Shown here in pieces: positions 1-58,001 of a DNA stretch of 64,000 nucleotides. The notes under the pieces were generated by a model. The model was not told where the DNA came from. It did not search any database and was given only the letters and a program-made list of their open reading frames with translations. Source of the DNA: an uncultured Planctomycetia bacterium (lineage in GTDB: Bacteria > Omnitrophota > Gorgyraeia > JABMRG01); contig CAZWMG010000004.1 in the NCBI GenBank assembly GCA_964634945.1, positions 52,528 to 116,527 of the forward strand, in the 5' to 3' direction. A program made the position numbers and the translations under genes. How positions within the stretch are numbered: the first letter of the stretch is position 1; every line of letters begins with the position of its first letter.

Positions 1-1310
1 TAACGCGCACTCTGTTACGCTTTGCTTGATCCTGCAAGAACTCCATCCAGCTCGCTGTGTTAAAATCGTTGCGATGCTTCTTATAATACTTAAAGTCATT
101 TGGCACGAGTTTAAGATTTAGAAAATTATTCAGCACCTGTAAGCTTTTCGAAATTTCGTATAGCTTGCGCTGTTTGTCGTTTTTTATTAATACATTTTCT
201 ATCGCAGTTGACAGTCCGTCCGCTTCTTCGAACAATTTAACGGTATCTATGTCCTCATGCGCGCGCACATACGCCACGTATTTTTCTAGGTTCGGATAAT
301 CGCTAATCGGCTCTTGCGCGTTGTTTGCCTCGCTTACCAGGTATTCATGATACTCCGATGGAGTAAGCTTGTTAAGCCGAAATTCAAGCGACTTTGTGAC
401 CAAATTCGTCAGTTGTTGTTTTGTGAGTTTTTTAGACAGCTGCTCAATAAGCGCGCTTCTCTCTTTTTCCACAACAGGGAATTTAATATCCTTTTCCATG
501 CCCGTAACTTCAATAAAGCGTGTAAAATCAGGGTAAGTACTGAGGCCCTGCCTGGTCTTGCCTGCAAGCATGTTTATATATTTGTAATAATCCGCCAAAC
601 TTATCTGCTCGTCTTCATATTCTTGCCGCGCCTTGTCGAGCTCTAGTAACTGCGGGGAATAAATCTTCTTTTGCAACGCTCTCACGACCGTGCTTATACC
701 GCCAATCTCCTTGTTCGCTTTTTCGCGAAATTGCTCTATAGCAAAAAAGGTGTCGAGATTGGCCTTGTATAGCTCTTCCTCTTCAAGCCCTTCAAGCACT
801 AGGTCGTAATCGGAGATTATATCGAGATATTCCTCTCCTGATATCTTGCCGGATTTAAGGTATTCCTCCGCTACGTCAAGCCTGCGCTCCTTATCCGCGT
901 ATGAACGCAGATACGAAAGGCTAACATCGCCCCAGCCGCCCTCTACCATAACTAGTCGTAAGTCATTATTTTGAACAAGCGCGTCTATAATGCGGCTTGA
1001 GTTCTTCTGCGCCTCATAGTTAGTGTGAATATCCTGAATATGTATTACTATCTTCGCGTCATCAGATTGTGCCTTATAACCTTCTACTATATGACCGGCG
1101 CCTTCTGGGATATCGATAGATAAAGGCAGGCTATCCTTGGCACTGCCCACATCGGAATCCGCTGGTAGCGCGGCCGGCAATACGGGCTGAACCGCTAGTC
1201 GATGTTTCTGCTTTTCGTAAAACCTCGCTATTCTTGGTGCGACTATCACAAGTATCGCCAGCGCGCACAATATTGCTGATGATAATACCACTATTCGTTT
1301 TTTAAGCACA
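1..1310 (-). CDS. 5'-partial gene running off the window edge. It encodes a signal-anchored protein whose N-terminal domain (IHIQDxH...EG...) is a paralog of the N-terminal domain of the giant ORF at 32288..38890. Probable GTG start at 1308-1310.
   Basis: Hand translation of the minus strand is open from about 1310 to position 1, with no stop. The N-terminus MLKKRIVVLSSAILCALAILVIV is hydrophobic. The stretch KIVIHIQDIHTNYEAQKNSSRIIDAL..VEGGWG aligns with KLIIHIQDRHVDPVTQNNIASIIEAL..LEGAFN of the giant ORF, and further blocks are colinear. The ORF track omits it because it has no stop inside the window. Confidence 0.55.
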
Positions 1311-1492
1311 ATGTCTCCTTGTTTTAGTGTCGTTATATCACTTATAAAATACTTTTACCAACTTAATATGAAGTATAGCACACCATTTTCCGGATGTCAA
1401 GCCCTAGATGCGGACATTTGCAACTACACTTACTCTACAACGTCATGGTTAAGCGCCGGATCTGGCCTATCAAAAAAATGAGGCCGCGGTGC

Positions 1493-3265
1493 TTATACGC
1501 GAAACAGGTTCTTCAGCCCCTCCTTATGCAAGATCTTGAGAGCTTGACGCACATGCTTCTTGTTGCGGGGATCCTTGTATTGTAAGAGCGCCCTTTGCAT
1601 CGCCCTTTCTCCCTGGGTTTTGGCCACATATATTTTTTTTCCTGTGTACGGATCCTTCTCTGTATAGTACATGGAACCTGATGTCGTCATGGGCAAAGGA
1701 ATGTAATCCTGTACCTGTTCCGGGTGAATGTGGTTTTTCGCGAGGTAGACTGCCAATTCAAGGGCATCACACAAGCGTGCGCCGGGGTGCGCTGTTATAA
1801 AATAATTTACTAGGTACTGCCTTTTGCCGGCTCTTTTACTAGCAGCCTCAAACCTGCTGATAAGCCTTGGATATTTATCAAACGCGGGTTTATTCATCAG
1901 CTTTAGCACAGGCGCGCTACAATGCTCGGGAGCAACTTTTAGTTGCCCGCTTACGTGAGATGCGCACAATTCATCCAGATATGCGTCTGAATAGTGGTCT
2001 ATTAATAGGTCATACCGCACCCCGCTACCAACAAATACATGTTGTACTCTGGGAACCTTCTTAAGCTCCTTCCAAAGCCGGATCGAATGTTCATAGCCCA
2101 GCTTCAGGTTCTTGCATTTTTCCGGCACAAGACACTGCTTATCGCGGCACGCGCCTGTTTTTTCCCACAAAGCGCAGGTTGCCATATACAGGTTTGCCGT
2201 TGGGCCACCAATATCTGTGACTGTCCCATGAAATGTTTTTTCTTTTGCGATCACTGATATCTCCTTTGCAATAGAGCGCGTGCTGCGACTTTGCACAATC
2301 CTACCCTGATGCAGGCCTAAGGAGCAAAAGCTGCATCCACCTGCGCACCCGCGGTGAGATGTGATCGAATGCTGCACAGTCGCGAACCCCGGAACCCCGC
2401 CATCTTTATCATACACGGTGTGCCAAGCGCGCATATATGGCAGGGCGTATATTCCATCTATCTCACTTGCTGTAAGCGGGGAAGCGGGGGGTTTCTGAAC
2501 AAGAAATCTATCGCCACATTGCTGGACAACTGCCTTACCTGAAAGCGGGTCTGATTCAGAGCATATAATCTTAAACGCTGCGTTAAACGCGTTCTTATCT
2601 TTTGCCATGCTCTCGAAAGAAGGGGACAAGACATAATCCTTAACCCCATCGAGCGTTTTTGCCACAACCACTGTACCGTTAATGTTGCTCAGATCAGGGG
2701 CGCCGATTGATTGTTTGAAGCGAGAAGCTATCTCTATAACTTGTTTCTCCCCCATGCCATAAACCAGAATATCAGCCTTTGCGTCCACTAAGAGCGAGCG
2801 CCTTACCTTGTTTGACCAGTAATCATAATGCGCGAGCCTGCGCATGCTTGCCTCTATGCCGCCTAAAACAATCGGCACGCCCTTAAATGCCTGTTTCAAT
2901 TTATTCGTATATATAATGCTTGCTCTTTCAGGCCTAAGAAACGCTTGCCCTCCTGGGGAATAATCATCTACATTGCGGATTTTCTTATTCGCGGTGTAGC
3001 GCGCGAGCATGGAATCAATATTACCTGCTGTAACCCCGAAAAAAAGCCTTGGCCTGCCCAGTATCTTAAAATCATCGAGGGTATGCCAATCCGGTTGAGC
3101 GATAATGCCCACTTTGAAGCCTGCGCCTTCTAATACCCTGCCTATAAGCGCGGCACCGTACGATGGGTGATCGACATACGCGTCTCCTGTGACCAACACT
3201 ATGTCCAGGCTGGACCAGCCACGTCTTGTCATATCCTTTTTTGATATCGGGAGAAAATCATTCAT
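1493..3265 (-). CDS. ygiQ: YgiQ-family radical SAM protein (UPF0313)
   Basis: 590 aa. The N-terminus WSSLDIVLVTGDAYVDHPSYGAALIGRVLEGAGFKVGIIAQPDW matches the conserved YgiQ N-terminal domain. A CxxxCxxC-type cluster (GCAGGCSFCS) is present. Confidence 0.8.
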   Translation of the reverse strand: MNDFLPISKKDMTRRGWSSLDIVLVTGDAYVDHPSYGAALIGRVLEGAGFKVGIIAQPDWHTLDDFKILGRPRLFFGVTAGNIDSMLARYTANKKIRNVDDYSPGGQAFLRPERASIIYTNKLKQAFKGVPIVLGGIEASMRRLAHYDYWSNKVRRSLLVDAKADILVYGMGEKQVIEIASRFKQSIGAPDLSNINGTVVVAKTLDGVKDYVLSPSFESMAKDKNAFNAAFKIICSESDPLSGKAVVQQCGDRFLVQKPPASPLTASEIDGIYALPYMRAWHTVYDKDGGVPGFATVQHSITSHRGCAGGCSFCSLGLHQGRIVQSRSTRSIAKEISVIAKEKTFHGTVTDIGGPTANLYMATCALWEKTGACRDKQCLVPEKCKNLKLGYEHSIRLWKELKKVPRVQHVFVGSGVRYDLLIDHYSDAYLDELCASHVSGQLKVAPEHCSAPVLKLMNKPAFDKYPRLISRFEAASKRAGKRQYLVNYFITAHPGARLCDALELAVYLAKNHIHPEQVQDYIPLPMTTSGSMYYTEKDPYTGKKIYVAKTQGERAMQRALLQYKDPRNKKHVRQALKILHKEGLKNLFRV

Positions 3266-3757: not shown

Positions 3758-6187
3758 TTATTCGCCGGCAGCTACTAAGGCGATTGCTGAAACACTGTCT
3801 TTCGGGGTCTTTAGTGTGATCATCTTAACCCCCTGCGTAGAGCGGCCGCTTGCGCGAATACCTTTCACCGATGTTCGTACAATCGTACCGCTTTCCGTAA
3901 TAATCATGAGCTCGTCTCTGTCTGTCACCATCTTTAAGCCGATTGCGCAACCTATTTTTGGCGAAGTTTTGAGATTAATTATACCTTTTCCCCCGCGTGA
4001 TTGCAATCTATATTCGCCGACCGGCGTACGTTTTCCAAAGCCCTTTTCTGATGCTGTTAGTAGTGTCGCGTCATCCTGCGCCACTACCATACCGATCACG
4101 CTGTCTTTTTTACCCAGCGATATGCCCTTGACCCCTCGTGCGGCACGACCCATGCTGCGAATGTCTTGTGCCTTAAAGCGTATTGCCTTTCCGTCGCGTG
4201 TCGCAAGAATAACATCTTGATGATCATCTGTAAGCACAACCTCAATAAGGCTGTCATCCGCATCGATGGTAATGCCTATAATCCCGCCTTTACGCGGGTT
4301 TGCGTACGCAGCTAGTTCTGTCTTTTTGATAATTCCTTTTGCGGTAGCCATCACCAGAGCGCCACCTTTATCAAATTCCTTGACTCGCATAAACGCGCTT
4401 ATCCTCTCTCCCGGCATAAGCTGTAATAAATTTACCAGCGCCTTGCCTTTGGAAGTGCGAGCTGCCTGAGGTATTTCATGCACCTTAAGCCAAAAGACCT
4501 TGCCCTTGTCACTAAAAAACAATATATGCTCATGCGTTGTCGCAATGAACAAGTGCTCGATAAAATCTTCGTCTTTAAGTTCCGCGCCCATCACGCCTCG
4601 CCCGCCTCGGTTTTGTTTGCGGTAAGAACTAACAGGCAACCGCTTAATATATCCTCCGTGGCTTACTGTAATCACAACGTCTTCTTCCGCTATCATATCT
4701 TCAATCTGCAGGTCTTCTACCTCTCCTACGATATCTGTCCTGCGCTCGTCTCCATATTTTTTCTGCAGCTCCACTAACTCGTCTTTTATAATCTTAAGGA
4801 CTTTTTTGGCGCTGGCAAGTATTGATTCATAAAGCTCTATTTTTTTCAGCAACTCAAGATACTCCTCCTCTAACTTAGTTCTCTCAAGCGCCGTAAGGCG
4901 CTGTAGCTGCATCTCTAATATGGATTGGGCCTGTATCTCGCTTAAGCCAAAGTTTTTCACAAGCGCCTTCTTGGCGGATTGCGTATCTTTTGACTGCTTG
5001 ATTGTCTTAATAATCTTGTCTATGTGCGTAAGCGCTATCTTTAAACCCTCTAATATGTGCGCTCTATCTTGCGCCTTTTTTAATAAGTATTGTGTTCGCC
5101 TTGTTATGATCTCTTTTCTGTGGTCGATATATATATCCAGAAGCTGCCTAAGGGTCAGCACGCGCGGCTGGTTGTTAACAAGCGCAAGCATGATAATGCC
5201 AAAGGTCGATGAAAGCTGTGTATGTTTATAGAGCTGGTTAAGTACTACCTGAGCAGGCCTATCACGTTTTAGCTCAACCACAACGCGAATACCCTCTTTG
5301 TCTGATTCGTCTCTAATATCTGAAATGCCCTCGATCTTTTTATCGGTGACGAGCTTCGCTATAGATTCGATAAGATTGGACTTGTTAGCCTGATAAGGCA
5401 GCTCTGTGATGATGATTGATGATTTGCCGTTCTTCTGTTCTTCGATCTGCGCGCGTGCGTGTAGCTTGATACGCCCGCGGCCTGTTGTATATGCGCTATG
5501 GATACCGCTCTTGCCGCAAATAGTCGCGCCTGTCGGAAAATCGGGCCCCTTCACGATCTTTAAAAGGTCCTTTACCGGTATATTTGGCTCATCGATGATT
5601 CTTATGATAGCGCCTGCTATCTCATTAAGGTTATGAGGAGGCATATTGGTTGCCATCCCTACCGCTATGCCACTACACCCATTTACTAATAACGTAGGCA
5701 GCGCAGAGGGCAATAAGACCGGTTCTTTTAAAGAACCATCAAAGTTAGGGGCAAAATCTATCGTGTCTTTATCGATGTCTGTTAATAACTCGTCAGAAAT
5801 TGAGGCCATGCGCGCCTCTGTATATCTCATGGCAGCCGCGGGATCTCCGTCAACAGAGCCCCAGTTGCCTTGTCCATCAACTAGCGGGTAACGCAAAGCA
5901 AAATCCTGCACCATGCGCACTAAGGCGTCATAAATAGAAGAGTCCCCATGCGGATGGTAACGGCCTAAGCAGTCCCCTACTATACGCGCGCTTTTCTTGT
6001 ATGGCTTGCTGTGCTGTAACGCTAAGCCGTGCATAGTGTAGAGGATTCTACGCTGCACCGGCTTGAGGCCGTCGCGCGCGTCTGGAAGCGCTCGCCCAAC
6101 AATAACACTCATCGCATAATTGATATATGACTCTTTAATCTCCGCTTCCACATATCTCTTTGTAATTCTCTCGCCGTGCGTATACAT
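3758..6187 (-). CDS. gyrA: DNA gyrase subunit A
   Basis: 809 aa. Active-site region [16 protein letters not shown], and C-terminal beta-pinwheel repeats. Confidence 0.95.
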
Positions 6188-6269
6188 ACTATTCCCTTTT
6201 TTAGTGTCTCGTTGTGCGTCGCGCGTATCGCGTATTGCGTAAAAACTGTAACGCGATACGCAATACGAA

Positions 6270-8870
<2,601 letters not shown>

Positions 8871-8882
8871 TTATGCTATTTG

Positions 8883-9191
8883 CTAGCATTCTCCTGCTCT
8901 GAATTTGATTTTTATCGGGTTTTTGTTTTTCAAGTATCTATTAAGCCTTTTTTCTATTTTACTTCTGTTTATGTTTAATTGGTAAATCCATGTTGGACTA
9001 TCTACGTCTATTATTAGCGTTGTTTTGGTTATTTTTTTTGGTTTTGTGTGCCTTGCCGCGTTTTGCCCGGCCGCGTCTACCCACGCGGACCAGACCTCCT
9101 CTTCGCTTAAGAGGCCCTTTTTTTGTTCTTCCGCTGTCTTTATCGCCGCCTTAAGTACCTCTTTTAATGGTGTTGGGCCTGTATGTTTCAT
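8883..9191 (-). CDS. dciA: DUF721 / DciA-like small protein (putative replicative helicase loader/operator)
   Basis: 102 aa, basic. It sits between dnaN and gyrB, the conserved DciA position. Assignment rests on size and context. Confidence 0.5.
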   Translation of the reverse strand: MKHTGPTPLKEVLKAAIKTAEEQKKGLLSEEEVWSAWVDAAGQNAARHTKPKKITKTTLIIDVDSPTWIYQLNINRSKIEKRLNRYLKNKNPIKIKFRAGEC

Positions 9192-9194
9192 TAT

Positions 9195-10286
9195 TTATAT
9201 TATTTGCATGGGCAGCACTATATATATGTATGTATCGTCTATACGTATAACGCCTGGTTTCTCCGGGCCTGTTAACTCTATCTCTACAATGTCTTGCTTT
9301 ATGCTTTTTAGCGCTTCTTGCAGGTATGTGGGATTAAACCCCACTAACAAGTCGTTGCCTGTATACTTAACCTCTATCTCTTCTTTTGTCTCTCCTATCT
9401 CTGGCGTTGCCTTCGAAACGACTAATTTGTTTTTTGTTAACTGTAGTTTTATCGCCTGTGATTCTGGTGTTGTAAGCAGGCTGGCCCTCTTTATAGCAGG
9501 TATAAGTTTATTGCGTTCTACTACAAGTTTTTTATCTGCCTCATTAGGTATCGCTTGCTTATAATCCGGGAATTCCCCCTCTACGAGCCTTGACACTATA
9601 TACAAGTTGTTTAAAGAAAATGTGACTTGGTTTTTTGAAAATTGTATTTTTATTTGTTCTGTATCATTTAAATTTTTTAAAAGTTCTTGTGTTGTTTTTG
9701 TGGGTATTATATATTTTTTTTCTTCTTGTGCGCTTGTCGCTTGTTTGTGTTTTACTATTGATAATCTTCTTCCGTCTGTTGCTATTAGTTTTATATTATT
9801 TTTTGATATAGCGCAGCAAATGCCGTTTAATACATATCTTGTTTCATCTCTGCTCATCGCGAACGTTGTTGCTAATAACATTTGTTTTAAGTCTGTTTGT
9901 TTTATTACAATTTCCTCTATTGTGGTTGGTGTTGGTAGTTGTGGGAATTCATCTTTTGGTGTAGTTAAGATTTTACATGTGGTTGTCTCTGTTTTTATAA
10001 TAATGGTGTTGTTTTTTTTAGCTGTTATCTCTATCTCTGTATTTGGTAGTTCTTTTATAATGTCTGCGAAGCGCTTTGCCGGTACGGTGACTGCTCCTTT
10101 TTCGTGAATCTTTGCCTCTGTTGTCGCTGTTATTCCTATATCTAGATCTGTTGCTGTGATTCTCACGTTGTTATTTACTTCTAGCAGTACGTTTAATAAT
10201 ATGGGTAATGTATTTTTTTGCGTTATCGCGCCAATAACAGCTTGTATTCCTAATAACAGATCATCTTTTTTTATACTTATCCTCAT
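9195..10286 (-). CDS. dnaN: DNA polymerase III beta sliding clamp
   Basis: 363 aa. Begins MRISIKKDDLL..; three-domain length; located next to dnaA. Confidence 0.9.
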   Translation of the reverse strand: MRISIKKDDLLLGIQAVIGAITQKNTLPILLNVLLEVNNNVRITATDLDIGITATTEAKIHEKGAVTVPAKRFADIIKELPNTEIEITAKKNNTIIIKTETTTCKILTTPKDEFPQLPTPTTIEEIVIKQTDLKQMLLATTFAMSRDETRYVLNGICCAISKNNIKLIATDGRRLSIVKHKQATSAQEEKKYIIPTKTTQELLKNLNDTEQIKIQFSKNQVTFSLNNLYIVSRLVEGEFPDYKQAIPNEADKKLVVERNKLIPAIKRASLLTTPESQAIKLQLTKNKLVVSKATPEIGETKEEIEVKYTGNDLLVGFNPTYLQEALKSIKQDIVEIELTGPEKPGVIRIDDTYIYIVLPMQII

Positions 10287-10367
10287 ATCAACAACCCTTA
10301 TTATTATAAATATATACTTTCTTAAAATAGTAATAGTAATTACTATTGTGTATAAGTCAATAACTCT

Positions 10368-11741
10368 TTAACTAACGTCACGTATTTTAGTTACGATATT
10401 CTCTACCACACTCTTAATATGTGGATTCTTTTTAATATCTTCTTCTATCTTATCACACGCATGGATTATAGTGGAATGATCCCTGCCGCCAAATAATCCG
10501 CCAATCTCAACAAGAGGAAGTTTTGTCATTTCCCTAGATAAAAACATTGCGACTTGCCTGGGGTATGCCACTTTCTTGGTCCGCTTTTTAATCCGCATGT
10601 CATTACTGCCAATACCAAAATATTCCGCGACAACAAATTGTATCCTCTCAACATTTATATTAACCTTGTTTTCAACAACAATTTCCTTTAATACGTCGCG
10701 AGCAACAGCGATATCTATCTTATGGCTGACAAGGGACGAATACGCAATTACCCTAATTAACGCCCCCTCTAATTCACGAATGTTGGCGGTAACATTATCC
10801 GCTATATAAGTAATTACATCCATAGGGACAACAACAGTCTCTTTTTCAAGTTTTTTCTTTAATATGGCGATGCGCGTTTCCATGTCAGGTGGCTGCATAT
10901 CCGTAACAAGGCCCCACTCAAAACGAGATACAAGCCTCTTCTCCATCGCCGGCATCTCTTTTGGGGATCTGTCACTAGAAAAAACAATCTGCTTATGCGC
11001 GTCATAAAGCGTGTTAAAGGTGTGAAAAAACTCTTCCTGAGTAGCCTCTTTACCGGATATAAAATGTATATCATCTATTAAAAGAACATCCTGGTGCCGG
11101 TATTTATCTTTAAATTTTTGCGCAGTCCGGTTCTGAATAGAGTTAATAAGTTGATTAGTAAATTTTTCACTCGATATATAAGTTACTTTCAAGCGGGGTT
11201 GTTTTGCAAGGAGATGTAGGCCAATGGCCTGCATTAAATGGGTCTTACCAAGCCCTACGCCGCCATAAATAAACAGAGGGTTGTACGCCTTGGCAGGGCT
11301 ATCAGCGACGGCAAGGGCAGCGGCATGCGAGAAGCGGTTGCACCCGCCTATTACAAAATTATCAAACGTGTAGCGCTGGTTAAGAGTGGTGTCTTGCCCC
11401 CGGGCAAGTCTATCAAAAGAACGAGAAAATAGTTTAAAGCCCCCCTTCTTGTCGTTTATTTGCTCCGCGTCTTGGCCCTCCTGCGGAGCGTGCGCGCACA
11501 CAACAAAATTAATTTTTATTCCTTCGCTGCCAATCTCCCGGACTGCAGCATTAACCTGATCCATATAATGGTCAAGGAGCCACTCCTTAAAAAAATTATT
11601 CGGCACCTCAACAATAATTGTATCGCCTTCTACCTTAGTTTGCTTAGTAGGCACAAACCACGTCTCATAGCTTTGCGGGCTGATCTGTTTATGTAAACAA
11701 GCTAGAATCGACGTCCAGGTGTTATCTGTTGCGTGTACCAT
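10368..11741 (-). CDS. dnaA: Chromosomal replication initiator DnaA. Start probably at the internal Met (MVHATDNTW); the track's longest frame runs to 11804.
   Basis: AAA+ Walker A GGVGLGKTHLMQAIG. Box VII. C-terminal HTH KVAYPRQVAMFLSREMT. Confidence 0.9.
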   Translation of the reverse strand: MVHATDNTWTSILACLHKQISPQSYETWFVPTKQTKVEGDTIIVEVPNNFFKEWLLDHYMDQVNAAVREIGSEGIKINFVVCAHAPQEGQDAEQINDKKGGFKLFSRSFDRLARGQDTTLNQRYTFDNFVIGGCNRFSHAAALAVADSPAKAYNPLFIYGGVGLGKTHLMQAIGLHLLAKQPRLKVTYISSEKFTNQLINSIQNRTAQKFKDKYRHQDVLLIDDIHFISGKEATQEEFFHTFNTLYDAHKQIVFSSDRSPKEMPAMEKRLVSRFEWGLVTDMQPPDMETRIAILKKKLEKETVVVPMDVITYIADNVTANIRELEGALIRVIAYSSLVSHKIDIAVARDVLKEIVVENKVNINVERIQFVVAEYFGIGSNDMRIKKRTKKVAYPRQVAMFLSREMTKLPLVEIGGLFGGRDHSTIIHACDKIEEDIKKNPHIKSVVENIVTKIRDVS

Positions 11742-12007
11742 ATAGAAAGACCTTGAAGTTTGCGTAAATTGTGTACAACTTGATATCATAATCAAGCGGC
11801 ACAAAAACGCACATATAATAAACAGCTACAATAAACATGTTGCCGCAGCCTTGCCGACGACAAAATAGTGAAAACAACAACACGGCTATTACTTTTTGCG
11901 TACAACACAGACAAGGTAGAACATAGCGCGCAAGACAACAGAACGCTTGCGCTAAACGAAATGATTATAACAGAAACAAGGGCATTTGCAAGAAAAAAGT
12001 TTTTAAC

Positions 12008-32287: not shown

Positions 32288-35200
32288 ATGACAAAAAAAA
32301 CTATAACACTTATACTTATAATAAGTTATATCATAACATCTAGCGGTCCTTGCTACGGTTTCGGCGCTAAGACGCTATTCACGCGCAAATCTCATGCACA
32401 AAGGCATGTAAATGCTTCTGCCAAGGCTGCGGAGAAGGATATTCTGGAGGCTTCTTCATCTCTTAGTATACCAAAAAGCCTCGGCCGCGTAGTTGAATCC
32501 TATAAAGGCAAAAATAAGAAGTTAATAATCCATATTCAGGACCGCCACGTAGACCCGGTTACGCAGAACAATATCGCGTCAATAATAGAGGCCTTGAATC
32601 TGCAGCACAATATTTATCTTATGTGCCTTGAAGGCGCTTTTAATGAACTTGATACATCGTTTTACAATAGTTTTGAGGATGCAGTGCTAAAAAAGAAGGT
32701 TGCGGAGGTTTTTGTGCAACAAGGCCTTTTTACAGGCCCGGAATTCTACAAGATAACCAATGCGGAAAATTACATAAGGGCCGTTGGCGCGGAGGATCGT
32801 GCGTTATATTTAAAACATCTTGCCAATTATAAGGAGAACCAGATCAATAAAGATGAAATTACAAGGCTCCTCAGGCATATGGGCAAAGCTACAGACGCGC
32901 TTAAGAAGCATGTTTTCTCTAAGGAGTTGATAGCATTAGACAAGGTTTCTCGCGATTACGTTAACAAGCAGATCGACCTGCCTGAATATCTTCTCCAGCT
33001 GAACGCGTATGCAGCCAAGTCCGACATATTGCCAGAGGAGTATTCTAATCTAAACAAATTTATCCATCTTACGGAAAGAGAACGCAGCATAGATTTTAAA
33101 GCAGCGGAGCAAGAGAGAGAATCGCTGATAAGATATTTTTCAGAGCGCCTGCCAAAAGAAGGCGTCCAGGCGCTCGTCCAATTAAGCCTTGATTTCCGTT
33201 CAAACAAGGTCTCAGATATTGTTTTTCACGACTACCTTGAGAGCTTAGCAGTTGAGCATGGGTTAAATAGCGCTATTTATAAAAACCTTGTTGCGTATAC
33301 AGAATATTTGAGGCTTTCTAGGGAGATAAACCATCTAAAGGTCTTTGATGAAGCACAAGATCTAGAGGAAAGAACGCAGATAGCGCTTTGCAATAACCAA
33401 GACCAGCAGAGCCTTGTTCAATATTCAAAATCAGTGAGCATGTTAAAAGATCTATATGCACTCAAGCTTACGCATCGTCATCTAGATTATATGGACGAGC
33501 ACCCGGGCTCGTTTGATATAGCAAACATACAAAAGTTTTTAAACAAAACATCTGCCAAATACGGCTTAGATACATTGTTAACCGATAGCTTAATAAGCCC
33601 GGATAGGCAGGCGCTTAATAATTCAAAAGAATTTTACCGCCTCGCGCTAATGCGTGACATTGCCCTTACAGACAACACATTAAAGCGCATGAAGCAGTAT
33701 CGTAAGGACAAGGCGATTCTTGTTACAGGAGGCTTTCATACTCAGGGCATAACAAATATTTTAAGGAAAAAAGACATATCATATGTTGTCATATGTCCTA
33801 CCATAGGCCTTAATGATTGCGATAAGATCTACGAAAAGCGGATAAATGGCACTCTTCCTAGTATGTATGCGTTGCAAACAGCATTGGCTAATATGTTATC
33901 TGTGCAGCTTAAGTCTGGCGAGGCTGATGTGCAGGAGCTCTTTTCTAAGGCCTACCAGAGCGTTTCTCAGCCTGCTGTAGAAGCCCAGGATATATTGATA
34001 GCCAAAGCCTCGTCATCAGGATTAGGTGGTTATGTAGTCAAAAACTTAATAGTTGCTGCAACAGTAGCGCTATTGGGAACAGGGATTTATATCCAGCAGT
34101 CTTCAGTAAGTTCTCAGAAAGACGCAATGGATACATTTGTGATAGCAAAGGCATTGCCATCGGATCAGTGGCAGATTATTTTAGATACATTAAGAGAGAT
34201 TTACGCCCTTATAAAAGACATAGAAGCGCCGAAGCCGCGCCAGATGGAGATGAAATTCAAGGTTGGCAAGGCGGCACGCATTTTACGTGATTACATAACG
34301 AATAATTTAGATAGTATACATAAGTATGCTAAGGAGGAGGGGATAGAACCGAATTATCTTGCGGCAATAATCATAGCAGAGCAGATGGATATAGACGAAT
34401 TTAGTTTAAAAGGTGAGGGCACAGATAAGATTCTGCCGCGTCTTCATATACGTGATACATCGCGGGGCCCGGGGCAGATAACAGAGCGGGCGCTTAAAAA
34501 GCATTGTAAAGAGACGCGGTGGCCCGCGTATGATAATCGATCTACGGAAGAGCTCTCCGATTCCGAGATAAATGCTATCCTAATGGGTGAAGGGGGCAAC
34601 CTGACAGACCACATAAGGGCGATAGCGATAATCTTAAGGGGAAAACGTGATTCTATTAAAGATTCTGCCGCGCTCTCTCTTGTTCAAGGCAAGCTGCAGT
34701 TAGGCGCGCTTTATACATCAACATACAGGGGCCTCGTAAAGGAGGATAAGGAGGATTTCTGTACATTCAGACAACTAAGAGAGAGCGAAAAAATACGGAC
34801 ACAGGTTTATGCGCATGCTGTAATTATCTATGAAGACTTTGTAAGCAAATGGCTGCGCTACCATAAATATGCATATGTGCCAGATGACATGTTATCTATG
34901 ACACTGCCTACCGATAACGCGGTTGATAGCGGCGCTGACGGCATTCAAGATATACAGGCAAAGGCCTCATCATCAGGCAGGAAGATAATGCATGTATGGG
35001 AGAATGGACACCCTGTCCTACCAGGGGGTTCACAAGCTACGCTTATGGCAGGATTAGGCGTATGTTTTGCAGTAGCTGCTAAACATACAAAAACAGAAGA
35101 AAGGTATATGGCGCACCTGTATCCGCTTCGACAAACAGGGGGCGCAGCAGGGAACTGGAAAGACGCGTATATCAATACGATGCTTAGCCGGCTCGATAGT

Positions 35201-38200
35201 TTCAATGTTCAACCACCAGGCCACAGGATAGATAAAGCCCGTAAGGGGAATGGATGGAATGCCGTTGTTATCCCGTCAGGTAAAGAGCTTGACGGTTATC
35301 CAAAAGAGGATAGAATCACGTTAGAGGACATAACAGAGAGGCTGGAGGCGGCTGGTGTAGATTTTATCGCAGACATTAACAGGGCCCACAAGTTAGTTAG
35401 ATTCCAAAAAGACGGCTCCATAAATATTATTCTGCCGGAAACGCCGGAAGCCTCTTATGACATTACTGCGCTGACGAAGGCTTCATCATCAGGCCGCGAT
35501 ATAGACAGAGGCTCTTTTTATAATCTTATACCTTCTGAAACCAGGCCAAGCGCAAAGATATATGATTACACCGATACAGAGGACAGGTATGAGATAATAG
35601 AATCGCTTAAGAGCAGTAATTGGTATTACCAGGCAGACGGTGATGGCCAGAAAGCCGCGATAATCAACAGGGCCTTTAACACGCTATCCGACTCTGCTAT
35701 TAACCAGCTAAAGAGTATTATAACAGAGCGCATGCAGGAAAACGGCAATGCTATAACAGAAGACACTATAGAGAGTATTATGGTATATGGAAGTTGGATA
35801 TATAATTTCGATGACAAGAAGATTTCTAATGATATCGATTTCGCGGTTATAGCAAAAGGAGATATACCCGTTCAGTCTATAAGAGGCGTAAGGATTCCGA
35901 AAACACTTTTTAAGGACACAGCCGATATAATACCGGTAGAACAAGCCGACATAAGGATTATAGGCACAGAACAACTCTTGTTAGCACCCGATGAAAAGGA
36001 GTACGAGACTACCCACTTTGAGGTATCTATGCAGGGCCACGGCATATTGCTCTGGGGCAGGAACTTCTTTCAGAGGCAGCCTATGGCGCACAATCTTATG
36101 GTGATGGCCAGAACGTTTTTATCTATTATGGAATTTTATCTGGATGTAAAATTACACAGCACGCATTATCCAGAAGAGTATTTAGATACTCTGAATAAAA
36201 GGCTGGATGAGGTGTATAATATTTTTAAGGTGCTGTTTAAAAATCTTGACCAGCCGGAACAGCCTTTAGCTGTAGGTATTATTCCCGTAGATAAGGCAGT
36301 AAAAGATATGAAGGCAGTAATGCGTAATGTAAGAAAATACTTAGACGGCTATTCTTATGAAGCGTTCCAGGATATCCTTAATACCGGTGTAGCGTCTGGA
36401 TTGAATGCACTTTATGTCCAGACCGAGACCAAGTTCATGAAAGAGTCGTTAGAAGCTCTTGGAAAAAAGACACAGGCCAGGACTTCATCATCAGGGGCAA
36501 TAATTACGCGCCCATTAGATAAGATACCGCCGGAAGAGATAAAGAATATTCTTGTTGTAGGTGATTACAAAAAGATAATACCAATGCCTAAATTAGGCGA
36601 GACAATAATAGATTTATGGCCGCTTGTTACTTCTCTTTGTAAGAAATACCCGGAATCAAAGATATTCGTATCAGCCCCTTATACGGAATTTTATTTAGCA
36701 GGCGACTTTAAGGGGCAGGTGGTCCCCATACCAAGCACAATAAAAGATATCCGTGACTGGGGCTACGCTAAATCAACATGGATTACAGATGATATTAACG
36801 GAGAGAAGGTATTGCGGTATAATGCGAAAGATATGTGCGCGTTAACACAGGCCGGCTATAAGGCGCGAAAGGAATTTATTCAGGACGAGATAATATTTGA
36901 GAGAAAACAGGAAGACCGGACAGGCGGTGAGGCGGGAACGGGAATCGATATGGTTTTTGATGTATCTGTGGCGCAGGGCCTGCGCAATGAGTTTTTAGGT
37001 AAGCAGCGCGGCAGACAGCCGTATTATTTTTCCATAGCCTCTTTTCTTAAGTATGCAAGCGCAACGAACGTATCCGTCGGACGCTATGATCAGGAATGTC
37101 CTGCGCAATACCGTGACAAGAAGGGTGATATTCACGACGTAAATTATGGTAATACGCTGGATGGCTTTCTTAACGTTCCTATGCTTAAACAGGCAGATAT
37201 ATGGAAGGCATCAATCGCTATTACCGCCGGCCTGGGCCTTGATGTAACGCAAGATAGTCTCAGATATATAACTTTAACCGAAAGTGAACGCCAAAACGCG
37301 ATAAGTTTTTTATCAGAAGTAAGCGGTATTTTTGATGGAAAGAACGAGACTGCTATTTTTGATACGACGAAGAAGATTATTCTTGTTAATGTATACGCAC
37401 AGACACAAAGTGTTTTAATGGGTTATACAATCGACCAGCAGATAGACACTTGGGTAGATTGCATAAGCACAACTCTCAAATCAATGAGAAACACCTATAT
37501 TGTTTTTACGAGAGGCGGGGAGATGGATGATAACTATACGTTTGTTGACCAGGTTGCAAGGGAGCTGATAAAAAGAAGCAAGGGCTCTGTCGCTCCACAT
37601 CAGAACGCTGTAATCCTGCCAAAAGAATCATTATATTCAAGGATTAACGAGGTTGTTGGCTTATCAGATGCGGTAATAACCCTGGATACGGGTATGAGCC
37701 ATTATGCTAACGGGGTATTTAATAAGCCTACACTCCTTATTACATCATCCAATATTCTGCACTGGGCTGCACCAAGAGAGAATGTATACCCGATAATACG
37801 CACCACGATACCGCAAAAAAATACTCACTATACAGAATTAGACAGTATTAAGCACGCAACCATGCTTTTGAACGCATTGTTAGGTGTAAAATCAGTCCGT
37901 GAAATACTTAAAAGCAGAAAACAGGCCAAGGCATTATCGTGGCTCGATTCCAATGATAGAATGCAGCAGCTCAGGACGCTTATGCAGCGCAAGTACGACC
38001 CTGCCGCAGAGATAGTTATGGATGATGTTGTGGATCAAATATTTCCAAAAGTTGTAGCGGATTTTATCGAGAAGAAAGCCGGGCGAAACGCAGAATATCT
38101 TTGGCCGCTTAGTGTTTCACCTAAAGCCTCTTCCGCTGGTACGAAGATATTGGATGAGGAATTATATTATGACGTAAGCGAGGCTATAGAGAAGAGCATA

Positions 38201-38890
38201 GAGCCTCTTTATGAGAAGGCCAGCAGTCTTGGGCTTGGGCGGCTGACATTTATTACAACGGTGCGCGAACTTACAGAGATAGATAAGAAACATTTAAGAA
38301 ACCTCGCCAGGCAAAATTCAGGGCTGCCGGATGATGCCCCGAAAAAGATAACCATAATAGCCTTGCACGATCAGCTGATAGGCGCGCTGAAAGGGTGCGG
38401 TTTTACTGATACAGGCGCCAGGCCTTCTGTGTTAGGTGTTAATTCCTTCAGTTTCTTGCCGGACTTTTTGGGCAGGGGCTGGGATAACATAGATGACGAT
38501 GAAAAGATGGCTATGGTAGCTGCGCATGCACGCACTCAGAATAAGGCCGTCATAACGATAACGGATGATATAGCTGCACAGGGTATCGCCTCTGTGATAC
38601 CCGCATACCTAAACGACAGGATGAAAGGAAGAGTCGTTATAGCGTCTATGAAAGGGGCAGAGCAAAAGACGCGGATCGGATACGATACAATAGAAGAAAA
38701 CGGCATACTCTTTAGTGCGATACTCGCCAATGCCGTTAAGGAGATAGGCACACAACTTATAGGGAGCAAGGATCAGGAATTATTTATACTGAATATATTG
38801 CCGCCTATTAATAGCAAGGCATTCGAAGAATTTATTCATAGCCTCATGGATATCAAAACCGCGGTTGAAGCAACTGCTTCAGCAGCCTAA
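32288..38890 (+). CDS. Giant 2200-aa mosaic protein. Signal peptide, then an N-terminal IHIQDRH/GGFHTQG domain (TraB/TIKI-like?), then a TM helix near residue 585. A minimal nucleotidyltransferase domain (GSx12DIDF) follows, then a GT9 heptosyltransferase-like domain. Six K/T-A-S-S-S/A/L-G linker motifs separate the domains.
   Basis: Single uninterrupted frame. Motifs read from the translation: VYGSWIYNFDDKKISNDIDFAVI; ILVVGDYKKIIP..LITLDTGMSHYANGV; KASSSG at about residues 570, 890, 1060, 1400 (TSSSG), 1960 (KASSAG) and 1990 (KASSLG). Confidence 0.85.
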   Translation: MTKKTITLILIISYIITSSGPCYGFGAKTLFTRKSHAQRHVNASAKAAEKDILEASSSLSIPKSLGRVVESYKGKNKKLIIHIQDRHVDPVTQNNIASIIEALNLQHNIYLMCLEGAFNELDTSFYNSFEDAVLKKKVAEVFVQQGLFTGPEFYKITNAENYIRAVGAEDRALYLKHLANYKENQINKDEITRLLRHMGKATDALKKHVFSKELIALDKVSRDYVNKQIDLPEYLLQLNAYAAKSDILPEEYSNLNKFIHLTERERSIDFKAAEQERESLIRYFSERLPKEGVQALVQLSLDFRSNKVSDIVFHDYLESLAVEHGLNSAIYKNLVAYTEYLRLSREINHLKVFDEAQDLEERTQIALCNNQDQQSLVQYSKSVSMLKDLYALKLTHRHLDYMDEHPGSFDIANIQKFLNKTSAKYGLDTLLTDSLISPDRQALNNSKEFYRLALMRDIALTDNTLKRMKQYRKDKAILVTGGFHTQGITNILRKKDISYVVICPTIGLNDCDKIYEKRINGTLPSMYALQTALANMLSVQLKSGEADVQELFSKAYQSVSQPAVEAQDILIAKASSSGLGGYVVKNLIVAATVALLGTGIYIQQSSVSSQKDAMDTFVIAKALPSDQWQIILDTLREIYALIKDIEAPKPRQMEMKFKVGKAARILRDYITNNLDSIHKYAKEEGIEPNYLAAIIIAEQMDIDEFSLKGEGTDKILPRLHIRDTSRGPGQITERALKKHCKETRWPAYDNRSTEELSDSEINAILMGEGGNLTDHIRAIAIILRGKRDSIKDSAALSLVQGKLQLGALYTSTYRGLVKEDKEDFCTFRQLRESEKIRTQVYAHAVIIYEDFVSKWLRYHKYAYVPDDMLSMTLPTDNAVDSGADGIQDIQAKASSSGRKIMHVWENGHPVLPGGSQATLMAGLGVCFAVAAKHTKTEERYMAHLYPLRQTGGAAGNWKDAYINTMLSRLDSFNVQPPGHRIDKARKGNGWNAVVIPSGKELDGYPKEDRITLEDITERLEAAGVDFIADINRAHKLVRFQKDGSINIILPETPEASYDITALTKASSSGRDIDRGSFYNLIPSETRPSAKIYDYTDTEDRYEIIESLKSSNWYYQADGDGQKAAIINRAFNTLSDSAINQLKSIITERMQENGNAITEDTIESIMVYGSWIYNFDDKKISNDIDFAVIAKGDIPVQSIRGVRIPKTLFKDTADIIPVEQADIRIIGTEQLLLAPDEKEYETTHFEVSMQGHGILLWGRNFFQRQPMAHNLMVMARTFLSIMEFYLDVKLHSTHYPEEYLDTLNKRLDEVYNIFKVLFKNLDQPEQPLAVGIIPVDKAVKDMKAVMRNVRKYLDGYSYEAFQDILNTGVASGLNALYVQTETKFMKESLEALGKKTQARTSSSGAIITRPLDKIPPEEIKNILVVGDYKKIIPMPKLGETIIDLWPLVTSLCKKYPESKIFVSAPYTEFYLAGDFKGQVVPIPSTIKDIRDWGYAKSTWITDDINGEKVLRYNAKDMCALTQAGYKARKEFIQDEIIFERKQEDRTGGEAGTGIDMVFDVSVAQGLRNEFLGKQRGRQPYYFSIASFLKYASATNVSVGRYDQECPAQYRDKKGDIHDVNYGNTLDGFLNVPMLKQADIWKASIAITAGLGLDVTQDSLRYITLTESERQNAISFLSEVSGIFDGKNETAIFDTTKKIILVNVYAQTQSVLMGYTIDQQIDTWVDCISTTLKSMRNTYIVFTRGGEMDDNYTFVDQVARELIKRSKGSVAPHQNAVILPKESLYSRINEVVGLSDAVITLDTGMSHYANGVFNKPTLLITSSNILHWAAPRENVYPIIRTTIPQKNTHYTELDSIKHATMLLNALLGVKSVREILKSRKQAKALSWLDSNDRMQQLRTLMQRKYDPAAEIVMDDVVDQIFPKVVADFIEKKAGRNAEYLWPLSVSPKASSAGTKILDEELYYDVSEAIEKSIEPLYEKASSLGLGRLTFITTVRELTEIDKKHLRNLARQNSGLPDDAPKKITIIALHDQLIGALKGCGFTDTGARPSVLGVNSFSFLPDFLGRGWDNIDDDEKMAMVAAHARTQNKAVITITDDIAAQGIASVIPAYLNDRMKGRVVIASMKGAEQKTRIGYDTIEENGILFSAILANAVKEIGTQLIGSKDQELFILNILPPINSKAFEEFIHSLMDIKTAVEATASAA

Positions 38891-51897: not shown

Positions 51898-52631
51898 AAA
51901 AAATATTTCAAAGATCTAAGTCCACGTTGGACGTAGCGACGCATTATTGCGCAGGTTGTGGGCATGGTATTATCCACAGGCTTATCGCGGAGATTATAGA
52001 TGAACTCAAGGTCCGCGAGAAAATTATAGCGATTGCGCCTGTTGGGTGCGCTGTCTTAGCTTATGATTATTGGAATTTTGATACAACAGAGGCGGCGCAT
52101 GGTAGATGCCCCGCGGTTGCCACAGCGATAAAGAGATTACGTCCTGAAAATATAGTATTTACATATCAGGGAGATGGAGATTTAGCGTCAATAGGTATCG
52201 CGGAGACTATACATGCCGCTAATAGAGGGGAAAACATTACTATTGTATTTGTGAATAATGGCGTATATGGGATGACAGGCGGGCAGATGGCCCCGACAAC
52301 TCTTATAGGGCAAAAGACAGCCACTTCTTTGTTAGGCAGGGATTCCATTTCAGATGGAAACCCCATGAAGATGCTTGAAATGCTCGCTGTTTTGGATAGT
52401 GTAAAATATTTGGAAAGGGTTTCGGTGCATTCTCCCCGGCATGTTTTAAAGACCAAACAGGCAATAAGAAAGGCGTTTAAAAATCAGATTAATAATAAAG
52501 GTTTTTCCATGGTTGAGGTTCTTTCCATGTGCCCAACATATACAAGCCGCTCGATAGAGGCGTCTATTCAATGGATTAAAGAGAGGGTGTTGAAAGACTA
52601 CCCGCTAGGCATTATCAAGGATGAAGGTTAA
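51885..52631 (+). CDS. 2-oxoacid:ferredoxin oxidoreductase beta subunit (TPP-binding)
   Basis: HYCAGCGHG, GDGD..IG TPP motif. Confidence 0.8.
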   Translation: MSKMKKIFQRSKSTLDVATHYCAGCGHGIIHRLIAEIIDELKVREKIIAIAPVGCAVLAYDYWNFDTTEAAHGRCPAVATAIKRLRPENIVFTYQGDGDLASIGIAETIHAANRGENITIVFVNNGVYGMTGGQMAPTTLIGQKTATSLLGRDSISDGNPMKMLEMLAVLDSVKYLERVSVHSPRHVLKTKQAIRKAFKNQINNKGFSMVEVLSMCPTYTSRSIEASIQWIKERVLKDYPLGIIKDEG

Positions 52632-54892: not shown

Positions 54893-55144
54893 ATGTATTA
54901 CACCTATATTCTTAGAAGCAAGAAAGATAATAGTAAATTCTATATTGGATATACAGCTAATTTAGAGAAGCGGTTAAAGGAGCATAACGAAAGTAGAATG
55001 TTGTATACTAAGCGTCATGCTCCTTGGTATGTAGAGACATACGTATCATTCACTAATCAGCAGCTAGCCAAGCAGTTTGAACAATATCTCAAAAGTGGTT
55101 CTGGCAAAACATTTCTCAAGCGAAGGCTGACAAGTCAGCCGTAG
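54893..55144 (+). CDS. Standalone GIY-YIG nuclease-domain protein (YhbQ/UPF0213-like), 83 aa
   Basis: YYTYIL and FYIGYT motifs, plus conserved R and E (KEHN). Confidence 0.75.
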   Translation: MYYTYILRSKKDNSKFYIGYTANLEKRLKEHNESRMLYTKRHAPWYVETYVSFTNQQLAKQFEQYLKSGSGKTFLKRRLTSQP

Positions 55145-57254: not shown

Positions 57255-58001
57255 AAATAGGGACAGCGCCCATTTAAATTTTTTCTTGCTTATGGGCGAT
57301 TCCTGTAATATTATATATTCATGCCAAGAACCGCAAGAATAGTTTTCGAAGAATATCCGCACCATATCACTCAAAAAGGAAATTACGGGCAGAAGGTATT
57401 TACTAAAAATTCCGAATACAGTATTTACCTCGAATGGCTAAATGAATATGCTATCAAGTATAAATTAAGCATACTTGCATATTGCCTTATGCCCAACCAT
57501 GTTCATTTTGCTGCTATTCCAAATAAGTCCGATTCTCTATCCAAGACTTTTAATACATGTCATATGCGTTATGCGCAGTATTTTAACAAACGCAATAGAA
57601 TTTCAGGCCACTTGTGGAAAGGCAGATTTTATTCCGCTGTTTTAGATGATAATCATTTATATTACGTTGTAAGATACATAGAAAATAACCCGGTGCGAGC
57701 CAAGCTTGTAAAAAGAGCGGGGGATTGGAAGTGGTCGAGTGCGAATACCCATTTAAATGGCGCAAAAAGTATTTTGCATCTGGGCAACATAAGGAAATAT
57801 ATTGATAATATAGACTGGGCAGACTATCTGCAAAAAAGAGAAGATGACGCAATTGTCAAAACCATAAGAGATACGACACTGAGCGGGAAGCCCATGGGAA
57901 GTGATTCGTTTATAGAAAAGCTAGAAAAACTATCAGGAAAAAGTTTAAGGACATTACCGCGCGGCAGGCCTCGGCAAAAATAAATGGGCGCTGTCCCTAT
58001 T
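57255..58001 (+). mobile_element. IS200/IS605-type Y1 (REP-associated tyrosine transposase-like) unit. 21-nt imperfect-palindromic ends in inverted orientation (57255..57275 and 57981..58001) flank the transposase gene.
   Basis: AAATAGGGACAGCGCCCATTT on the left is the exact reverse complement of AAATGGGCGCTGTCCCTATTT on the right. Confidence 0.7.
57321..57983 (+). CDS. Y1 HUH transposase (IS200-like / RAYT family)
   Basis: HUH motif MPNHVHF. Catalytic Tyr region YIENNPVRAKLV. 220 aa. No tnpB partner. Confidence 0.8.
   Translation: MPRTARIVFEEYPHHITQKGNYGQKVFTKNSEYSIYLEWLNEYAIKYKLSILAYCLMPNHVHFAAIPNKSDSLSKTFNTCHMRYAQYFNKRNRISGHLWKGRFYSAVLDDNHLYYVVRYIENNPVRAKLVKRAGDWKWSSANTHLNGAKSILHLGNIRKYIDNIDWADYLQKREDDAIVKTIRDTTLSGKPMGSDSFIEKLEKLSGKSLRTLPRGRPRQK

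Follow-up and report, generated by a model that had tools for sequence, protein, structure and literature searches.

A large Omnitrophota protein family with a probable TIKI-like head, found alone or at the front of cassette proteins

Omnitrophota are ultra-small, probably host-dependent bacteria, and what their very large multi-domain proteins do is a recognised puzzle. Here we analyse a stretch of 64,000 nucleotides (the window; positions 52,528 to 116,527 of the forward strand of contig CAZWMG010000004.1, assembly GCA_964634945.1) from an uncultured member of this phylum (Gorgyraeia; JABMRG01). The left edge of the window cuts through a minus-strand gene for a protein module that recurs as the N-terminal 'head' of a 2,200-amino-acid (aa) open reading frame (ORF; 32288-38890, plus strand), referred to below as the giant. 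The edge gene is a complete stand-alone gene of 533 aa, neither a pseudogene nor a giant itself, and the module heads thousands of other proteins of 0.8-5.6 thousand amino acids (kaa). Together they form a very large unannotated family, found almost only in Omnitrophota, which is new, belongs to the TIKI superfamily or stands beside it, and brings a fusion grammar of its own that is likewise new. On balance, and with some reserve, the best explanation overall is that the head is an exported TIKI-like hydrolase that either stands alone or leads cassette proteins.

In the window the edge gene is an open frame at 1-1309 (minus strand) that holds codons 1-436 of 533; the last 97 codons lie past the edge. 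A preliminary description of this DNA had recognized the open frame and placed its start at 1310; the true start is 1309, with a GTG codon at 1307-1309 and all 436 codons open up to the window edge. A ribosome-binding site (AAGGAGA, 1314-1320, minus strand) lies four bases upstream of the GTG, and the gene appears to own a promoter, judging from a candidate sigma-70-like site (TTGACA-17-TATACT with an extended -10 TG; 1372-1400, minus strand) that was recognized by consensus match only. The remainder of the gene comes from Logan contig SRR8146442_2815 (L085), which was recovered through a look-up of the radical S-adenosylmethionine (SAM) protein of the window. This contig matches window positions 1-3265 without a single mismatch and continues beyond the left edge. 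On it the ORF stops after 533 codons, and the added 97 residues hold ANKRDDAF and VAGGFHTP (the putative second catalytic motif). Because the identical contig carries the ORF to its stop at 533 aa, the edge gene is complete. The leftward extension, which the preliminary description had thought might reveal a stop or a frameshift, shows an intact ORF. The closest relative in a collection of 5.8 billion proteins (P0001) is also 533 aa long and 91% identical, and its gene stands in a sister genome in the same order as in the window, dnaA-dnaN-(dciA)-gyrB-gyrA-radical SAM-head. The 117 nearest relatives are nearly all 480-570 aa long and come nearly all from metagenome-assembled genomes (MAGs) of Candidatus Omnitrophota; the exceptions in size are a few fragments at contig ends and one partial 642-aa protein.

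The edge protein and the N-terminal domain of the giant are paralogues, as had been proposed. BLASTP aligns edge residues 30-431 with giant residues 30-424 at E=1e-51 (30% identity and 52% positives over 403 columns), well past chance. The conserved blocks quoted earlier are all in this alignment, namely KIVIHIQDIH/KLIIHIQDRH, VEGG/LEGA, GKISGEEY/GLFTGPEF, ERSALI/ERESLI and SLEFRLNK/SLDFRSNK. A family profile finds exactly two copies in the window (E=2.6e-180 and 3.5e-137), the second being that of the giant, which covers profile positions 8-503 of 512. The head module of the giant spans 32288-33877 (plus strand) and opens with a signal-peptide-like N-terminus (aa 1-25). The idea that the edge ORF is a pseudogene remnant, or that the similarity arose by chance, retains a negligible probability: it is refuted by the BLASTP E value and by the full 533-aa ORF on L085, and the intact syntenic orthologues, the promoter-like site and the ribosome-binding site speak against it as well.

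The family profile (A1), built from 114 sequences, was searched against 1.84 billion cluster representatives (50% identity clusters) and matched 9,972 of them at E<=1e-3, 8,663 at E<=1e-10 and 6,753 at E<=1e-30. The family takes two forms, a stand-alone protein of approximately 530 aa and the N-terminal head of proteins of 0.8-5.6 kaa. Among the best 150 matches approximately 45 are 470-680 aa long and approximately 105 are longer, with a maximum of 5,568 aa, and in all but one the head lies at the extreme N-terminus. A search with the 2,200-aa protein gave 219 relatives of 1.2-3.8 kaa, most of which cover 20-29% of the query, whereas approximately six close relatives cover 40-91%. One head is present in each of the 121 giant relatives examined (121/121; median start residue 21, median end residue 528). 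Downstream of the head, the domains that Pfam recognizes in the relatives of the giant differ widely; they include phosphoglucomutase, PPDK_N/PEP-utilisers, enolase, phosphofructokinase, glucose-6-phosphate isomerase and FBPase/PGK as well as CsrA, Ser/Thr kinases, methyltransferases, M48 and M50 peptidases, metallophosphatases and TPR/HEAT repeats.

In contigs taken from one genome per species, 112 loci encode a relative, nearly all of them in Omnitrophota MAGs; the others are in single Ratteibacteria, Auribacter, 'Deltaproteobacteria' and Methanoperedens MAGs and in one Elusimicrobiota MAG (two loci). We kept 80 of the 112 loci, in approximately 60 of which the head stands alone and in approximately 18 of which it heads a long ORF. 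Stand-alone and fused forms are interleaved at similar identity levels, and in several MAGs the head occurs two or three times or as a tandem pair. The gene family expected from the window alone is thus real, with 9,972 clusters, several copies per genome and tandem arrays. The further expectation of several large secreted proteins built on a shared N-terminal module holds across Omnitrophota and fails for the edge gene, which is stand-alone; in this window the family profile finds only one large head-bearing protein. Head genes are often in tandem or beside giant genes, as at L010 (117-9896), L013, L019, L036 and L049; in one such case a stand-alone head is immediately preceded by a 3,259-aa gene with a tail, and in others two heads lie from a few hundred to approximately 1,500 bp apart.

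The head is probably a very divergent domain of the TIKI/TraB/ChaN/Ere superfamily, split by a helical insertion of approximately 300 aa. An AlphaFold2 model of the orthologue, made on A1, is confident (mean predicted local distance difference test score, pLDDT, 90.9) and has an N-terminal helix (2-35), a disordered linker (36-56), strands at 72-78, 87-93, 119-122 and 171-175 with helices between them, an all-helical insertion of approximately 300 residues (178-476) that splits the alpha/beta core, and a C-terminal part of strand 481-487, a helix, strand 504-510 and a last helix. In the edge gene, conserved alignment columns and the modelled strands and helices place the N-terminal half of the core (residues 62-177) at 779-1126 of the minus strand, with HIQDIH (D93 at 1031-1033, H95 at 1025-1027), VEGG (E123 at 941-943) and GKISGEEY (827-850) inside it. 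The modelled secondary structure of the insertion (pLDDT >90) puts its first part, residues 178-436, at 2-778 (minus strand), and the C-terminal half of the core, with R462 and with H490 of GGFH, falls outside the window, in the L085 sequence.

Fifteen positions are invariant or near-invariant: Q92, D93, H95, Q101, E123, G124, G154, E160, E176, Y181, R462, G487, G488, F489 and H490. Among them Q92, H95, E123, R462, G487, G488 and H490 are invariant and D93 is near-invariant; across alignments of 114, 67, 60 and 61 sequences the conservation of D93-x-H95, E123 and H490 is complete or at least 90%. The same positions are invariant in fused heads, including, in giant numbering, D85-x-H87 (32540-32548), E115 (32630-32632), R456 (33653-33655) and G481-H484, the GGFH motif (33728-33739; all plus strand). 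The D/E-x-H, E, R, GGFH pattern is invariant or near-invariant in over 230 sequences with identities as low as 26%, and D93-x-H95, E123 and H490 directly follow model strands 87-93, 119-122 and 481-487.

The TIKI superfamily is defined by a parallel beta-sheet core flanked by helices and by a set of two His and two Glu residues, and in its member RRSP all four (E3900, H3902, E3930 and H4030) are essential for catalysis (PMC6254334). Like TIKI enzymes (RRSP, Bcr135/EreB/EreC and TIKI1/2), the head has an alpha/beta core with the putative catalytic residues at strand ends, an acid-x-His motif, a Glu that follows the His by 28 residues and, beyond a Gly-rich turn, a second His. The acid stands at His-2, as E3900 does in RRSP, and the His-Glu spacing of 28 (H95-E123 in the edge protein, H87-E115 in the giant) equals that of the H85-E113 pair of Bcr135 and of H3902-E3930 in RRSP (PMC6254334). 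TIKI enzymes also share with the family a variety of appended domains, and several act outside the cytoplasm. In contrast to them, the head has an Asp for the first Glu, carries its long helical insertion between the Glu and the Arg/second His, and has an invariant Q92, Q101 and GKISGEEY without a described counterpart, and no sequence or Foldseek match to them is significant.

Foldseek against PDB finds nothing significant (E of at least 0.09), and its sole alpha/beta matches, which are also the only ones that are not coiled coils, are EreC (Foldseek probability 0.63), Bcr135 and ChaN 2G5G (Foldseek probability 0.41), all of the TIKI superfamily. PF04187 (ChaN, of the same superfamily) is reached at threshold by one member, P0110 (27.8 bits against a cut-off of 27.7, E=3e-6), and appears at E<=1 in 8/67 members. 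These two signals, together with the order and spacing of the motifs, are three independent weak indications that lead to the same superfamily. They also stand against the alternative that the head is a new alpha/beta-plus-helical fold, unrelated to TIKI proteins, in which the His/Asp/Glu likeness arose by convergence or chance. That alternative, which we judge quite improbable, draws on the lack of a significant Foldseek or profile-to-sequence match: profile searches of PDB sequences with the full module, with the core without its insertion and with the single sequence of P0110 returned spurious helical matches only. It also draws on the Pfam and NCBIfam scans, which gave nothing above noise for the two window proteins, and on the commonest weak Pfam match in the family being PF23202 (40/67 members), a helical domain considered unrelated.

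Individual relatives within the superfamily fit to different degrees. ChaN is extracytoplasmic and lipoprotein-type, a likeness to the head, and it provides the sole Pfam family that any member reaches as well as a Foldseek match; unlike the head, it is a haem-binding protein of approximately 255 aa, the window proteins have no PF04187 match, and nothing in the head points to haem. TraB/PrgY/GumN proteins (PF01963) resemble it in having a membrane-tethered extracytoplasmic domain that is thought to process secreted peptides. PrgY, however, is anchored by C-terminal transmembrane (TM) helices, whereas the anchor or signal of the head is N-terminal. Pfam scans of the window proteins and of the family members gave no PF01963 match, and the paired GxxH expected of PF01963 is not found, the first motif of the head being IQDxH. 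The TIKI/TraB-like hydrolase suggested in the preliminary description is the best available reading (on the residue pattern, Foldseek and PF04187); a match to TraB/PrgY itself was not seen. The metal dependence suggested alongside does not follow from the conserved residues, because RRSP and EreB are metal-independent enzymes of the TIKI superfamily (PMC6254334). Apart from these comparisons, the invariant G-x-I-S-G-E-E-Y helix-turn at 827-880 (AEEYLKSGKISGEEYLDI), present family-wide, weakly matches phycobilisome linker repeats (Glr2806, Glr1262 and ApcE); the resemblance of AEEYLKxGKISGEEYLDI to these repeats reaches E=0.013 summed over repeats and was judged to be probably chance.

From the conserved residues we consider it rather likely that the head is a catalytically active hydrolase with a putative active site at this pattern. 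It could instead be a non-catalytic module for ligand binding, membrane retention or secretion that tethers or guides a variable body, in parallel with the haem-binding ChaN, the inactive C1/C2 domains of PMT or the N-terminal retention module of LapA-type adhesins. ChaN and PMT are indeed TIKI-superfamily proteins without a catalytic role (PMC6254334), and the strictly N-terminal position right after the signal peptide and the large conserved helical insertion would suit such a function. PMT, however, lacks the two His and two Glu residues (PMC6254334), whereas the head keeps its pattern nearly without exception, as active sites do, and we regard a non-catalytic role as quite unlikely.

Export of the head by a Sec signal peptide or signal anchor, to the outer face of the cytoplasmic membrane or further out, is likely from the N-terminal sequences. 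The edge protein has a 19-residue hydrophobic anchor (residues 6-24, IVVLSSAILCALAILVIVA; 1238-1294, minus strand) that follows KKR and scores 1.86 in a Kyte-Doolittle 19-mer window. Most other heads show, by inspection, canonical-looking n-h-c leaders that end in AWA, AFA, ALA or SYA, and 64/121 fused proteins are without a further TM segment by simple hydropathy. These features point to an exported head, as in TIKI, PrgY and ChaN. Predicted export of the head revives a published puzzle for Omnitrophota, in which 'cytoplasmic' enzymes are predicted to be outside the cell.

Behind the head, the giant is divided by a short repeated motif, K-x-S-S-x-G, into cassettes and a tail (all on the plus strand). 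Motif 1 (KASSSG, aa 573-578, 34004-34021) is directly followed by a TM-like segment (aa 578-596, 34019-34075). Cassette 1 (34022-34960) leads to motif 2 (KASSSG, aa 892-897, 34961-34978), which marks homology breakpoints with P0121, P0124 and P0125, and cassette 2 (34979-35476) leads to motif 3 (KASSSG, aa 1064-1069, 35477-35494). Cassette 3 (35495-36478), with a weak Pol-beta nucleotidyltransferase signal, ends at motif 4 (RTSSSG, aa 1398-1403, 36479-36496), and cassette 4 (36497-38122), with a weak GT9/heptosyltransferase signal, ends at motif 5 (KASSAG, aa 1946-1951, 38123-38140). A sixth, degenerate motif (KASSLG, residue 1977, 38216-38233) lies within the tail domain (aa 1952-2200, 38141-38887), which ends ...LPPI...DIKTAVEATASAA-COOH. 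By eye, with no Pfam support, AIIIAEQ...GPGQI in cassette 1 recalls lytic-transglycosylase motifs and GLGVCFAVAA in cassette 2 recalls CheD-type deamidases. An example of a junction as a 15-mer peptide is DIQAKASSSGRKIM.

Searching the bodies of the 121 relatives with the pattern [KRTPVEQ][ASTP]S[SA][SAG]G gave 117 motifs against 2.7 expected from shuffles, with up to 6 copies per protein, the first 40-80 residues past the head and the last approximately 255 residues before the C-terminus. The pattern was defined after it had been seen, which an excess of this size makes immaterial. The points where homology breaks off lie no more than a few residues from the motifs, and in the clade of the window protein the cassettes, which are unrelated to one another, are inserted, deleted and reordered exactly from motif to motif. 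In pairwise comparisons the 334-residue cassette 1065-1398 is missing from P0119 and P0120 as a motif-to-motif deletion, with motifs 3 and 4 as its left and right edges; cassettes 2 and 3 are swapped in order in P0121, as are cassettes 1 and 3 in P0127, and P0124 and P0125 are without cassette 1. At the DNA level, the 11-mer TCATCATCAGG encodes three of the six junctions (34967-34977, 35483-35493 and 36485-36495) and occurs nowhere else in the 64 kb. TCA makes up only 24% of Ser codons, yet these three junctions share the 11-mer, which could reflect microhomology by which cassettes are exchanged, gene conversion, or selection on codons where domains meet.

The conserved tail, of approximately 255 aa, is found by jackhmmer in 31/121 proteins, always at the extreme C-terminus, and its C-terminal signature of LPPI, an amphipathic helix and A-x-(A/S)-(A/L)-COOH is visible in approximately 100/121; a short ungapped C-terminal hidden Markov model (HMM) was too weak for searching. 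Its model (pLDDT 89.7) has a generic alpha/beta fold with the motif region at low confidence at its start, and Foldseek against PDB gave generic Rossmann-like matches only (TM-score <=0.31). This C-terminus is reminiscent of the recognition tags or secretion signals that some proteins carry at that end.

The motif also occurs in proteins without a head. In the source genome the stop codon of the edge head gene runs straight into the GTG start (TAGGTG) of a gene for 921 aa, which lies to the left of the window (L085 13559-16324). A sister strain has the same layout with a 923-aa neighbour (L081 11603-14371), with no gap in either strain. The 921-aa protein has a signal-peptide-like leader (...NALSFD...), then K-K-S-S-A-G at approximately residue 55, and ends in ...IESAISSAA; the body of the 921/923-aa protein consists of a helical region of approximately 350 aa followed by PEP-utilisers mobile and PEP-binding domains. 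Among the 5.8 billion proteins it has only five homologues, of 870-923 aa, and K-x-S-S-A-G is in their majority consensus. The pair, a stand-alone head and an apparently translationally coupled gene for leader, motif and enzyme, mirrors the fused layout. We considered whether the neighbour could be the body and tail of a fissioned giant. It shares only the leader motif and the ...SAA end with them, and BLAST finds no similarity between it and the 121 giants; we do not call it a fissioned giant because it is without the tail domain and without fused relatives. A second headless carrier runs off the right edge of the window (61907-64000, plus strand) and has a hydrophobic leader, KTSSAG (aa 71-76, 62117-62134, plus strand) and a calcineurin-like phosphoesterase (metallophosphatase) domain. 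Nine public contigs carry the gene before it, and the three shown end approximately 90 nt short of its ORF.

Taken together, a mechanism can be proposed in which the head, exported to the outside of the cytoplasmic membrane, at its outer face or beyond, would act there as a TIKI-like hydrolase through D/E-x-H, E (+28), R and GGFH. It would cut fused proteins in cis at or near K-x-S-S-x-G, and headless proteins, such as the 921-aa neighbour, would be cut in trans by a stand-alone head. That the motif-punctuated exported proteins are substrates of the head, with putative cutting at or near the motif in cis or trans, is a tentative proposal that we regard as possible rather than probable.

Several observations weigh against this proposal or against its premises. 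K-x-S-S-x-G is limited to one clade (approximately 35/121 proteins), and the head is conserved much more widely. Beyond that clade no universal punctuation motif was found among the 121 proteins: repeated junctions are sporadic (EG.KPMP in P0147 and D.SGAAP in P0208) and most proteins have none. Because the motif is confined to one clade, cutting at it cannot be the general function of the family, unless specificity co-evolves. In the giant, the TM-like segment right after motif 1 would place the later motifs on the opposite side of the membrane from an exported head. The five homologues of the 921/923-aa neighbour all stand alone, none being fused to a head, and an HMM search found no tail domain in the neighbour. 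Signal peptides were judged by eye and hydropathy only, the first catalytic acid is Asp, not Glu, and the silence of Pfam and NCBIfam on the two window proteins counts here too. Finally, stand-alone heads keep to a place beside rsmI and the envelope genes glmS, lpxA-like and PMT_2, a position that would equally suit an envelope-directed esterase.

Such an enzyme is the substance of another explanation, in which the head is an active TIKI/Ere-like esterase or amidase whose substrate is not the attached protein, being instead lipids or glycans of the envelope or of a prey surface, or a small molecule. K-x-S-S-x-G would then be no more than a lineage-specific linker between domains, or it would be the site of action of another enzyme, for example a glycosyltransferase, kinase or different protease. 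The Ere enzymes of the superfamily are esterases (PMC6254334), and the envelope-gene neighbours, the conservation of the head far past the motif-bearing clade and the TM segment between the head and most motifs of the window giant all agree with it. It leaves unexplained, however, why the module is nearly always the first domain of cassette proteins and why a stand-alone head is joined stop-to-start with a headless motif carrier. A passive linker would not keep its K and G unchanged from one unrelated junction to the next, with an approximately 40-fold enrichment. We consider this explanation unlikely.

The widest form of the cutting proposal would be that Omnitrophota encode secreted self-processing polyproteins by the thousands, each with an N-terminal TIKI-fold endopeptidase that would cut at short lineage-specific motifs (K-x-S-S-x-G in the clade of the window protein) and so free interchangeable enzyme cassettes, either extracellularly or inside the cell of a host or prey. 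Stand-alone heads would serve headless substrates in trans, and cassette exchange at junctions would be the source of diversity. We offer this as speculation that is more probably wrong than right by a good deal; by analogy, and with the same low expectation, it would parallel viral polyproteins and MARTX toxins on a different protease.

MARTX toxins have constant ends with unrelated effector cassettes shuffled between strains in the middle, and a protease (here a candidate) in the same polypeptide. Their cysteine protease domain is activated by inositol phosphate. RRSP is itself a MARTX effector and a TIKI-fold peptidase (PMC6254334). Pfam scans of the giant, whole and as six segments, detect neither the RTX or glycine-rich repeats of MARTX nor its cysteine protease domain. 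The putative protease of the giant is N-terminal and of another fold, and its cassettes are housekeeping-type enzymes; the likeness is architectural only. The fused proteins are part of a broader phenomenon, the giant 'multi-enzyme' proteins of the same phylum, in which signal peptides or TM segments likewise occur with sugar-phosphate enzymes, PPDK_N, kinases, methyltransferases and TPR/HEAT repeats. These have been studied as proteins of at least 10 kaa (10.64898/2026.06.07.730766) and as curated giant genes (West-Roberts et al. 2023, 10.1101/2023.11.21.568195), and both studies state that the N-terminal regions have no identifiable domains except C39/S8 peptidases. At 2,200 aa for the window protein and 5,568 aa for the longest member, the present family lies below the published thresholds for giants (ORF >20 kb or at least 10 kaa), and we found no description of the head family, the tail or the punctuation motif in the papers that were searched.

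The head gives the N-terminal region of a large protein class an identity, with approximately 10,000 clusters and a conserved putative active site. The grammar is simple (signal peptide, head, motif-bounded cassettes, tail) and makes cutting (where and by what), the export of 'cytoplasmic' enzymes and cassette exchange testable. Should the head prove to be a processing enzyme, the TIKI fold would have gained a new use and bacteria a polyprotein system of a new kind; should it not, it would still be a large uncharacterised exported hydrolase family of one phylum.

Elsewhere in the window, dnaA, dnaN, gyrB and gyrA lie on the minus strand at 3758-11804 and the GC skew changes sign near 12 kb, which looks like the replication-origin region; a DnaA-box scan found no consensus cluster beside dnaA. 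According to the gene tables of matching contigs, two further plus-strand genes stand among housekeeping genes, a small GIY-YIG gene (54893-55144) and an IS200/IS605-type Y1 transposase gene (57321-57983).

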